Below, in pieces: positions 18,491 through 19,611 of a stretch of DNA of 22,360 bases. How positions within the stretch are numbered: the stretch's first letter is position 1; each line of letters starts with the position of its first letter. Source of the DNA: Candidatus Tepidifontimicrobium thermophilum. GTDB taxonomy: Bacteria > Sysuimicrobiota > Sysuimicrobiia > Sysuimicrobiales > Sysuimicrobiaceae. The DNA is taken from assembly GCA_031459915.1 (NCBI GenBank), contig JAVKHO010000027.1, forward strand, positions 1 to 22,360, given 5' to 3'. A model generated the notes under the pieces. That model searched no databases and was not told the origin of the DNA. It worked only from the letters and a program-made list of their open reading frames with translations. Position numbers and translations under genes: made by a program.

Positions 18491-18617
18491 CTCCAATCCT
18501 CTCCTGTCGCCTTCGCCGTACGGTTCGGGGGAAGGGGACCAAAACCCTTCTGGCAAACAGTAAGGAGGGCGCCCCGCGACGCCCTCCCCTCCGTCGCTCG
18601 CTTCAACCCCTGGGCAC

Positions 18618-18647
18618 AGTATAGGGCGCGGGGCCAAGCCCAGCCAA
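18618..18647 (-). promoter_or_regulatory. Putative sigma70 promoter of the cox operon
   Basis: Minus strand TTGGCT(18647-18642)-18 nt-TATACT(18623-18618). Confidence 0.6.
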
Positions 18648-18652
18648 GCCCA
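18633..18652. repeat. Perfect 10-bp tandem repeat (GCCAAGCCCA)x2
   Basis: 18633-18642 and 18643-18652 are identical and lie between the divergent promoters. Confidence 0.9.
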
Positions 18653-18653
18653 T

Positions 18654-18682
18654 TTGACACCGCAGGGCCAATTGTCTATCCT
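18654..18682 (+). promoter_or_regulatory. sigma70 promoter of ybxF-rpsL-rpsG-fusA-tuf
   Basis: TTGACA(18654-18659)-17 nt-TATCCT(18677-18682). Confidence 0.88.
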
Positions 18683-18694
18683 CTGGAAGGTTGC

Positions 18695-18735
18695 CCGGAG
18701 CCACGATGAAGGGCGTAGCCCGGAGGGGGACCCGG
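18695..18735 (+). promoter_or_regulatory. Putative kink-turn hairpin in the 5' UTR of the L7Ae-like gene, overlapping its SD
   Basis: CCAC-GAT-GAA-GGGC-GTA-GCCC-GGA-GGGG: 3-nt bulge followed by G.A, A.G, A.G pairs and a 4-bp stem. Confidence 0.65.
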
Positions 18736-18995
18736 TGACCGAGCTGGAAGCGCTGGGCCGCGCGGAGTCGCGCGCGGTCGGGGCCAACCAGACCACCAAG
18801 GCCATCCGGAAGGGGAGGGCGGAGGTGGTGTTCGTGGCGCGGGACGCGGACCGAAAGGTGGTGGAGCCGGTCCTGCGGGCCGCGCAGGAGATGGGCGTGC
18901 CGGTGGTGGAGGTCGCCTCCGGCAGAGAGCTGGGTCGGGCGTGCGGGATCGCCGTAGGGGCATCTGCCGCGGCGATTCTCAAGCGCGACCGGTAG
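18735..18995 (+). CDS. ybxF: L7Ae/L30e-family RNA-binding protein (YbxF-like), 86 aa
   Basis: SD GGAGGGG before GTG18735. VGANQTTKAI, VFVARDAD, ELGRACGIAVGA motifs; canonical position upstream of rpsL. Confidence 0.93.
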   Translation: MTELEALGRAESRAVGANQTTKAIRKGRAEVVFVARDADRKVVEPVLRAAQEMGVPVVEVASGRELGRACGIAVGASAAAILKRDR

Positions 18996-19236
18996 CCGCA
19001 CGGAACGGCCGATTACGGTGCCCCTCGCTCCGCGGGGGGTTGCCGCGCCGCAGGGAGCCGGGCCGGTCAAGAGCCCCGGTGCCAGCCGGGAGCTCCGCTG
19101 ACGGACAGGGCCCGGGTCCCGGAGGGCGCGGACGCATCCGGCGCACAGCACAGTTCGGGTCAGCGGGCGCGTGGAGCCGGGCGCCCCGGAGGGGGCGCCT
19201 GGAGTTTGCGGACTCTTCGGCTGGGAGGGAGCTGGA

Positions 19237-19611
19237 ATGCCGACCATCAACCAGTTGGTGCGGCTGGGGCGGGAGCCCCTGACGCACAAAAGCAAGTCCC
19301 CGGCGCTGCAGGGGAACCCGTTCAAGCGGGGGGTCTGCATCCAGGTCAAGACCATGACCCCGAAGAAGCCGAACTCTGCCCTGCGGAAGATCGCCCGGGT
19401 CCGGCTGACCAACGGCATCGAGGTCACCGCGTACATCCCGGGGATCGGCCACAACCTGCAGGAGCACTCGGTGGTCCTCGTCCGGGGCGGCCGGGTGAAG
19501 GACCTCCCGGGCATCCGGTACCACATCGTTCGGGGTGCCCTGGACGCGGCCGGGGTGGCCAACCGCCGGCAGGGGCGGAGTAAGTACGGGGCCAAGCGGC
19601 CGAAGCAGTAG
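19237..19611 (+). CDS. rpsL: 30S ribosomal protein S12
   Basis: [29 protein letters not shown] motifs; SD GGGAGG. Confidence 0.99.

Follow-up and report, generated by a model that had tools for sequence, protein, structure and literature searches.

The leader of ybxF in Candidatus Tepidifontimicrobium thermophilum, a gene for a small bacterial protein of the L7Ae family, holds a kink-turn (k-turn) motif directly on its Shine-Dalgarno (SD) sequence, and many Bacilli hold a k-turn motif of other sequence and opposite polarity at the start of the same gene. We describe the first element from contig JAVKHO010000027.1 (assembly GCA_031459915.1), whose 22,360 nucleotides are hereafter called the window. 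From the two elements we infer that the leader folds and that YbxF, when in excess, probably binds the leader k-turn and represses its own translation. An initial annotation of the window had put forward this feedback; conservation of the motif and the independent k-turn in Bacilli speak for it, and the limitation of the window's form to two genera speaks against it. The weight of the window finding comes from the Bacilli element, as an independent k-turn on the ybxF SD makes autoregulation much likelier than the window alone would.

The gene itself was named correctly as bacterial L7Ae-like. Its 86-residue product (18735..18995) matches PF01248 (E-value 7.6e-14) and is the sole PF01248 match in its genome; its closest solved relative is YbxF (3v7e/4lck), and among NCBIfam models PRK13602 scores best, its 79.6 bits falling short of the cut-off of 113. 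The short form of the protein and the position directly ahead of rpsL are likewise those of YbxF. One near homologue carries the source label candidate division GAL15.

The window leader is predicted to be 46 nt long and to fold as one hairpin, with the k-turn as an internal loop (Table 1). Every base that had been read into the k-turn is there, namely C18704, GAT 18705-07, G18708, A18709, A18710, GGGC 18711-14 and GCCC 18718-21, with the loop GTA between the last two, and on the non-bulged side G18722, G18723, A18724, G18725 and the GTG at 18735; the SD GGAGGGG does form this non-bulged strand. As in standard k-turns, a 3-nt bulge is followed by G.A (1b.1n) and A.G (2b.2n), and a Watson-Crick non-canonical (NC) helix is predicted to be paired after 3b.3n. 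In the canonical (C) helix that closes the bulge the -1 pair is constant and further pairs vary, and the mismatch conceded by the initial annotation is real, position -2 being unpaired in the window. Support is added by an outer helix, which we predict to pair GGUUGCC 18689-95 with GGUGACC 18734-40 across the entire start codon; the CCGG/CCGG register proposed earlier is a near-equal alternative, and the favoured helix differs from it in covering the whole GTG. The single hairpin was also predicted by us, but its stability is no greater than that of shuffled sequences (z -0.42), so stability was dropped as support and is not counted as evidence here.

The bulge of Kt-7 is GAA. The GAU of the window differs from it, against the claim of a Kt-7 consensus, and the SAM-I riboswitch of the same genome, which belongs to a class with established YbxF binding, has a C-GAU-GA core identical to that of the ybxF leader. 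Archaeal l7ae leaders also have a GAU bulge (PMC6298567), and it is these that the window resembles. As in leaders of the L7Ae family, the k-turn lies within the transcript of an L7Ae-family gene and over its SD. A scan of Rfam, suggested by the initial annotation, returned no family above the gathering threshold at the window leader, nor any match at nine Bacilli loci and one locus of a second genus, g2.

The k-turn motif of the window is real and specific to ybxF. Since an SD supplies one GA for free, we measured the chance background among gene starts taken from a rough gene calling made for this analysis. Among 2,515 such starts, 16 had a loose k-turn over the SD. A strict definition, which was set after the motif had been seen and asks for four Watson-Crick pairs, C-G at -1 and a purine at both L1 and L2, left ybxF as the only one. 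Shuffling the leader with its SD held fixed gave loose k-turns in 0.8% and strict ones in 0.14% of cases.

To follow the motif in relatives, we used a phylum sample of 84 ybxF leaders, two negative ones of which come from unpublished genomes (G023, G060). C-GAU-GA, the 4-bp NC stem and GA-G were kept in all eight genomes of the genus and in metagenome loci L052 and L053, with ybxF DNA identity across the k-turn-bearing genus set at 82-96%; the conservation of GAUGA...GA on which the initial annotation had staked its case is therefore present in 8/8 genus genomes, and the same geometry in 3/3 of the second genus. The C-G at -1, the GAU bulge, the tandem G.A and A.G and the 4-bp length of the NC stem (with one C-G to U-G change) each recur in 13/13 genus-type loci. 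Positions -2 to -6 vary and are often unpaired, and 3b.3n is A.G, G.G or G-C. Invariant columns in the same set number 0/3 in the loop, 0/11 in the promoter spacer and 0/15 at fourfold sites containing A or T.

In genus g2 the SD carries a hairpin of other sequence but equal geometry (3/3 loci), consisting of U-G, a GAG bulge, the tandem G.A and A.G, C-G at 3b.3n and an 8-bp NC helix. A third genus, g3, is represented by one genome (L011/G009), where a hairpin lies over the start without the k-turn motif; in this single genome the YbxF residue that corresponds to L7Ae N33 is His, in a recognition helix that reads GAHQT. The 5' arm of the outer helix (18689-18695) is invariant across the window's genus, without covariation, and the 5' ends of the g2 and g3 leaders are also predicted to pair with start-region bases, from other sequences. 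A family tree of 25 of the 30 loci (five had no usable rpsL) did not settle the branching of g1 (the window's genus), g2 and g3, or the order of gain and loss.

A presence of the window form throughout the phylum or Bacillota was looked for and not found: it occurred in 1/73 other phylum leaders, apparently by chance, and in 0/85 and 1/90 leaders outside the phylum. Widening the SD window raised the background, to 3/85 ybxF, 7/179 rpsL and 5/209 rpsG starts. Among the leaders searched, the window-type k-turn thus appears confined to two genera. Many phylum ybxF leaders are only 6-20 nt long with no clear SD (L036-L038, L023-L028, L009 and others), and ybxF in these members is, by sequence, near-leaderless. 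Three loci (L021, L146, L068) contain weak C-GAU-GA candidates in which the start AUG forms the bulge, too few to call. Viral contigs yielded no relatives.

The opposite-polarity k-turn was found at ybxF in Brevibacillus, Thermoactinomycetaceae, Ammoniphilus, Chengkuizengella and some Paenibacillus loci. Here untranslated CUUU-G-GA-GGA pairs with the first ybxF codons, so that half of the element lies within the coding sequence: the start codon sits in the C helix, a UAU forms the bulge, a Glu or Asp codon provides the GA, and the NC helix is closed by AAAG. Beyond the k-turn, predictions often show an additional CCUG/CAGG helix. In an even sample from the class of G218 Brevibacillus fortis, which we take to be Bacilli, 131 genomes were searched, 115 had a match and 90 starts were examined; 52 of these 90 carry the k-turn. 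The same form was found at 1/179 rpsL and 0/209 rpsG starts (together 1/388) and at 22/2,518 starts of the window's genome. CTTT precedes the SD in 55/90 sampled ybxF starts and is not among the tetramers listed for rpsL and rpsG.

Codon usage in this region is frozen. We picked 65 distinct Bacilli loci by a protein pattern, so that on the coding side the GA and two As are given by the selection itself. Of these loci, 64/65 have TCT as codon 2 (against 15% of Ser codons in the rest of these genes), 64/65 have TAT as codon 3 (62% in the rest) and 63/65 have AAA as codon 5 (Lys; 56% in the rest). The pairs at -2 to -4 hold in 65/65 through one-sided changes, and -1 is U-G with 3n=G. Across 63 distinct rows, 94% of cells are paired and four pairs show two-sided changes; the covariation score was reached by 0/500 shuffles, and slid registers pair 46-61% of cells, figures that are inflated by relatedness. 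A compensatory U-A/C-G switch at the third position of a Val codon requires five changes on the gene tree, at least three of them forced by well-supported branches. The Bacilli form therefore has the conservation with covariation that characterises L7Ae-family leaders.

A model built from the Bacilli rows gave one match per genome in 56/61 genomes of the order of G339. Among 40 held-out matches, which score more weakly and come from genomes not used for the model, 40/40 lie at ybxF and 39/40 have the full motif. The N-terminus of the G339 protein matches residues of the crystallised YbxF (3v7e). That the element overlaps the coding sequence may explain why screens of intergenic RNA missed it.

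The mechanism that we propose starts from a leader of about 46 nt which would fold as one hairpin, marginal at growth temperature. While YbxF is occupied by other k-turn RNAs, the SD would breathe and ybxF would be translated; unbound YbxF would grip the G.A core and hold SD and GTG closed, limiting ybxF synthesis to the load of k-turn RNAs. The same logic may hold in many Bacilli with another sequence, the opposite polarity and an SD paired to codons 1-6. We lean towards the view that self-repression by YbxF through a k-turn arose at least twice in bacteria, in opposite polarities, as a 5' untranslated region (UTR) element in a thermophile family and as an SD-coding sequence hairpin in Bacillales and relatives. 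Candidate titrating RNAs in the genome are SAM-I (C30:73153-73259), T-box (C6:688-904) and cobalamin (C12:120491-120702) riboswitches, which are possible YbxF ligands; no glycine riboswitch was found there. For the start region of the window, the predicted cost of opening is 12.7 kcal/mol at 37 C and 6.7 at 70 C, near the 75th percentile of the genome, so that a modest added stabilisation could matter. The initial annotation had placed the feedback at the head of the str operon. Control of rpsL and of the other operon genes by it is not supported: rpsL, beyond a spacer of 241 nt, carries an SD of its own, and nothing shows control of the str genes.

Several observations weigh against autoregulation or dilute the evidence for it. 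The SD provides one GA of the window k-turn at no cost, and in Bacilli the Glu or Asp codon supplies the other. Within the genus no two-sided covariation was seen in nine aligned rows (G001 was left out, its leader being that of G002, and the G005 row is three bases short at the 5' end). Positions 18683-95, at the 5' end, are as invariant as the k-turn (13/13), the difference between g1 and g2 amounts to a single event with the register assumed, and the window form is all but missing from the wider leader samples described above. Held-out Bacillales keep the 9b-9n pair in only 31/40 cases. Initiation may in any case favour first codons rich in A/U; this could account for some of the codon freezing, though not for the untranslated bases that match.

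The identity of two pairs also counts against the proposal. In the regulatory k-turns of Archaea, C:G at -1 and 3n=G are avoided, which makes folding dependent on protein (PMC6298567), whereas the window k-turn has both, and 3n is G in 6/9 genus rows. The window k-turn should accordingly fold in metal ions alone, and the C-G at -1 and the A.G at 3b.3n, which had been counted in its favour, are both features that the archaeal leaders avoid. YbxF binds with 270 nM against 10 pM for L7Ae (PMC3884654); a binder this weak might arguably require a site that is already folded. Lastly, an AUG lies within the k-turn motif, a point absent from the initial annotation.

RNA reads over the leader bear on several of these readings. 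Hot-spring run X6 gave 149 reads, partly from relatives. Its gene-strand (+) reads start in the 18657-18707 bin, with none at 18504-18656, and five molecules end at 18704, where the neighbouring depth is six. A transcription start downstream of 18705 had been named as evidence against the switch; on these thin data reads begin at 18704, and the transcript therefore includes the bulge. The ends at 18704 may reflect processing, a true start, truncation in the library or clipping where strains differ; set against autoregulation, the pile could also mean that the outer helix is absent in vivo. Runs X4 and X5 contributed just four and two reads, and the X1 contigs skip the leader, so the start is not fixed by them.

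Of the other explanations, one would have a protein-independent hairpin dampen ybxF translation behind a strong promoter, or act as a thermometer, with the G.A geometry arising incidentally from the SD. The 5' end pairs over the start in each of the family's three genera, even in g3 with no k-turn, the predicted opening cost given above fits such a role, and RNAalifold recovers the Bacilli hairpin without G.A terms. It leaves unexplained why the unpaired GAUGA is invariant while loop and spacer vary, and why the exact register of a 3-nt bulge recurs in g2 and in Bacilli. A plain Bacilli hairpin could, moreover, close its loop by direct pairing to GAA, whereas those 55 of 90 starts have CTTT ahead of the SD, which we read as favouring the k-turn. 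We therefore consider this explanation unlikely.

The k-turn could instead form, and perhaps bind YbxF, with little effect on translation, either because it is pre-folded by Mg2+ or because it serves mRNA stability or processing. Folding in ions goes with the combination of C:G at -1 and A.G at 3b.3n (PMC4914095; PMC6298567), YbxF is a weak binder (PMC3884654), and the five read ends at C18704 fall on the edge of the k-turn. However, g2, three members of the genus and the Bacilli have Watson-Crick 3b-3n or U-G at -1, Watson-Crick 3b-3n is predicted to require protein, and all conserved versions lie on the SD. We regard a k-turn of little consequence for translation as improbable.

Least probable, at a small fraction of our overall belief, is that GAUGA is kept for the AUG of a short upstream open reading frame (ORF), whose ribosomes would unwind the hairpin and re-initiate at GTG, or for an N-terminally longer YbxF. 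A GGAG at 18697-700 could serve as its SD, and the AUG at 18706 opens ten codons that end in a UGA across the GTG. Over 13 loci the AUG is offset by 29, 30 or 32 nt, so that frames 0 and 2 alone are seen; the ORFs of relatives either share the ybxF frame or stop at this same overlap, and database gene callers begin some relatives at this AUG (P0002, P0016). With only three lengths seen, however, the frame bias is weak, the spacing from GGAG to AUG drops to 3 nt in L006, g2 has no AUG at that site, and A18709, the C-G pair and the Bacilli element go unexplained. Such an ORF could also coexist with control by the k-turn. A two-state switch through the upstream copy at 18693-700, which our scanner found in the genus, was rejected as more than a minor possibility: the copy is broken in L053 and never part of the minimum free energy structure, and in L006 there is too little space beside it for a C helix.

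Autoregulation by YbxF has its closest parallel in Archaea, where binding and reporter experiments established that L7Ae controls its own synthesis through a k-turn in the 5' UTR (Daume 2017, PMC5539422; Huang 2019, PMC6298567). The archaeal leaders share with the window an L7Ae-family gene with a k-turn at the SD, a GAU bulge and tandem G.A pairs; that of S. acidocaldarius l7ae also has a 4-bp NC stem and a weak C helix, and both loop polarities occur among them, as they do between the window lineage and Bacilli. In contrast, the protein of the window is YbxF, a weak binder reported to be dispensable, and its k-turn, known here from sequence, has C:G at -1 and 3n=G. Daume et al. set bacterial YbxF and YlxQ apart as dispensable weak binders and proposed an archaeal origin of the feedback (PMC5539422). 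Since the window leader departs in one respect from the sequence rules of the archaeal type, we do not file it as a member; that it works like an archaeal L7Ae leader is plausible.

Other known systems share single features. YbxF, RulS and OapC act on k-turns of riboswitches and of OLE RNA (PDB 3V7E, 4LCK; PMC9723947) and belong to the same protein family, but there the protein helps other RNAs to fold; the portions of PMC9723947 available describe no YbxF target in its own mRNA. Yeast L30e, as cited in PMC5539422, is an L7Ae-family protein that binds a motif in its own transcript, although it is eukaryotic and acts on splicing as well as translation. Bacterial ribosomal-protein leaders (PMC7247131 supplement; PMC3849166) likewise exert feedback on translation operons by means of a structure that lies on the ribosome-binding site, whereas the Bacilli element is half inside the coding sequence.

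In the literature searched, we came across no earlier account of the ybxF elements. The 2020 table of ribosomal leaders places the L7Ae leader in Archaea only (PMC7247131 supplement), the available text of leader surveys of Bacilli and Firmicutes (PMC1913097, PMC3849166) lists no ybxF or L7A leader, and term searches of PMC7247131 and PMC5737381 returned no bacterial case. A k-turn in ybxF mRNA was not found in the papers covered (including PMC10221552, PMC12054373, PMC4316175 and PMC4342826), most subscription journals lying outside that scope. This agrees with the initial annotation, which knew of no bacterial description, and Rfam holds none either. Self-feedback by L7Ae-family proteins was found described for archaea and yeast only, and a prior mention for bacteria is possible.

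Table 1. Features of the window around the ybxF leader, with the corresponding element of Bacilli.
Feature	Position	Strand	Remarks
Sigma-70-type promoter	18654..18682	+	TTGACA 18654-59, 17-nt spacer, TATCCT 18677-82; predicted +1 near G18689
Outer helix, 5' arm	18689..18695	+	predicted pairing to 18734-18740, burying the GTG start
Upstream copy GCC(C/U)GGAG	18693..18700	+	SD-like GGAG; could serve as alternative non-bulged strand
C helix, bulged strand	18701..18704	+	C18704 (-1b) pairs with G18725; -2 mismatched
3-nt bulge GAU (L1-L3)	18705..18707	+	
Possible 10-codon upstream ORF	18706..18738	+	AUG in bulge; UGA overlaps ybxF GTG
G1b, A2b, A3b of the k-turn	18708..18710	+	
NC helix GGGC/GCCC	18711..18721	+	variable 3-4 nt loop
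SD GGAGGGG, non-bulged strand (3n, 2n, 1n, -1n onward)	18722..18728	+	6 nt ahead of GTG
ybxF (L7Ae-like, k-turn-binding)	18735..18995	+	GTG start 18735; recognition helix G-A-N-Q-T-T-K-A-I-R-K-G
Conserved stem-loop in ybxF-rpsL spacer, not a k-turn	19043..19132	+	RNAalifold, 13 loci: two-sided changes in 5/22 pairs
rpsL (S12), first ribosomal gene of the str cluster	19237..19611	+	own SD
Bacilli k-turn	ybxF start, about -25 to +25		L073, L085, L123, L139, L141, L272-L401; SD pairs with codons 1-6

The promoter claimed for ybxF is present, with a consensus score of 10/12 and two sites against a mean of 0.0 in 50 shuffles, and the same type precedes ybxF in most loci of the phylum and of Bacillota. 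It stands back to back with a promoter on the minus strand (18618-18647), and RNA reads run both ways. A cytochrome oxidase-like cluster, named from its translations, points away from ybxF and is inserted between rpoC and the str cluster. The stem-loop in the ybxF-rpsL spacer is common to the three genera and one neighbouring family and has no match in Rfam; it is a candidate S7/S12 leader.

If YbxF does control its own synthesis in this way, its weak binding to k-turns would matter in vivo, and cells would meter YbxF against riboswitches and OLE RNA. Feedback by the L7Ae family would then span all three domains of life and not be an archaeal invention, contradicting the published proposal of an archaeal origin, and the Bacillales-type hairpin would have frozen the first codons of YbxF. 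YbxF already serves widely as a crystallisation chaperone, and its complex with a k-turn has been solved. Through the Bacilli version the question can be put to laboratory strains, and the element would be a natural protein-responsive translational switch of bacteria.
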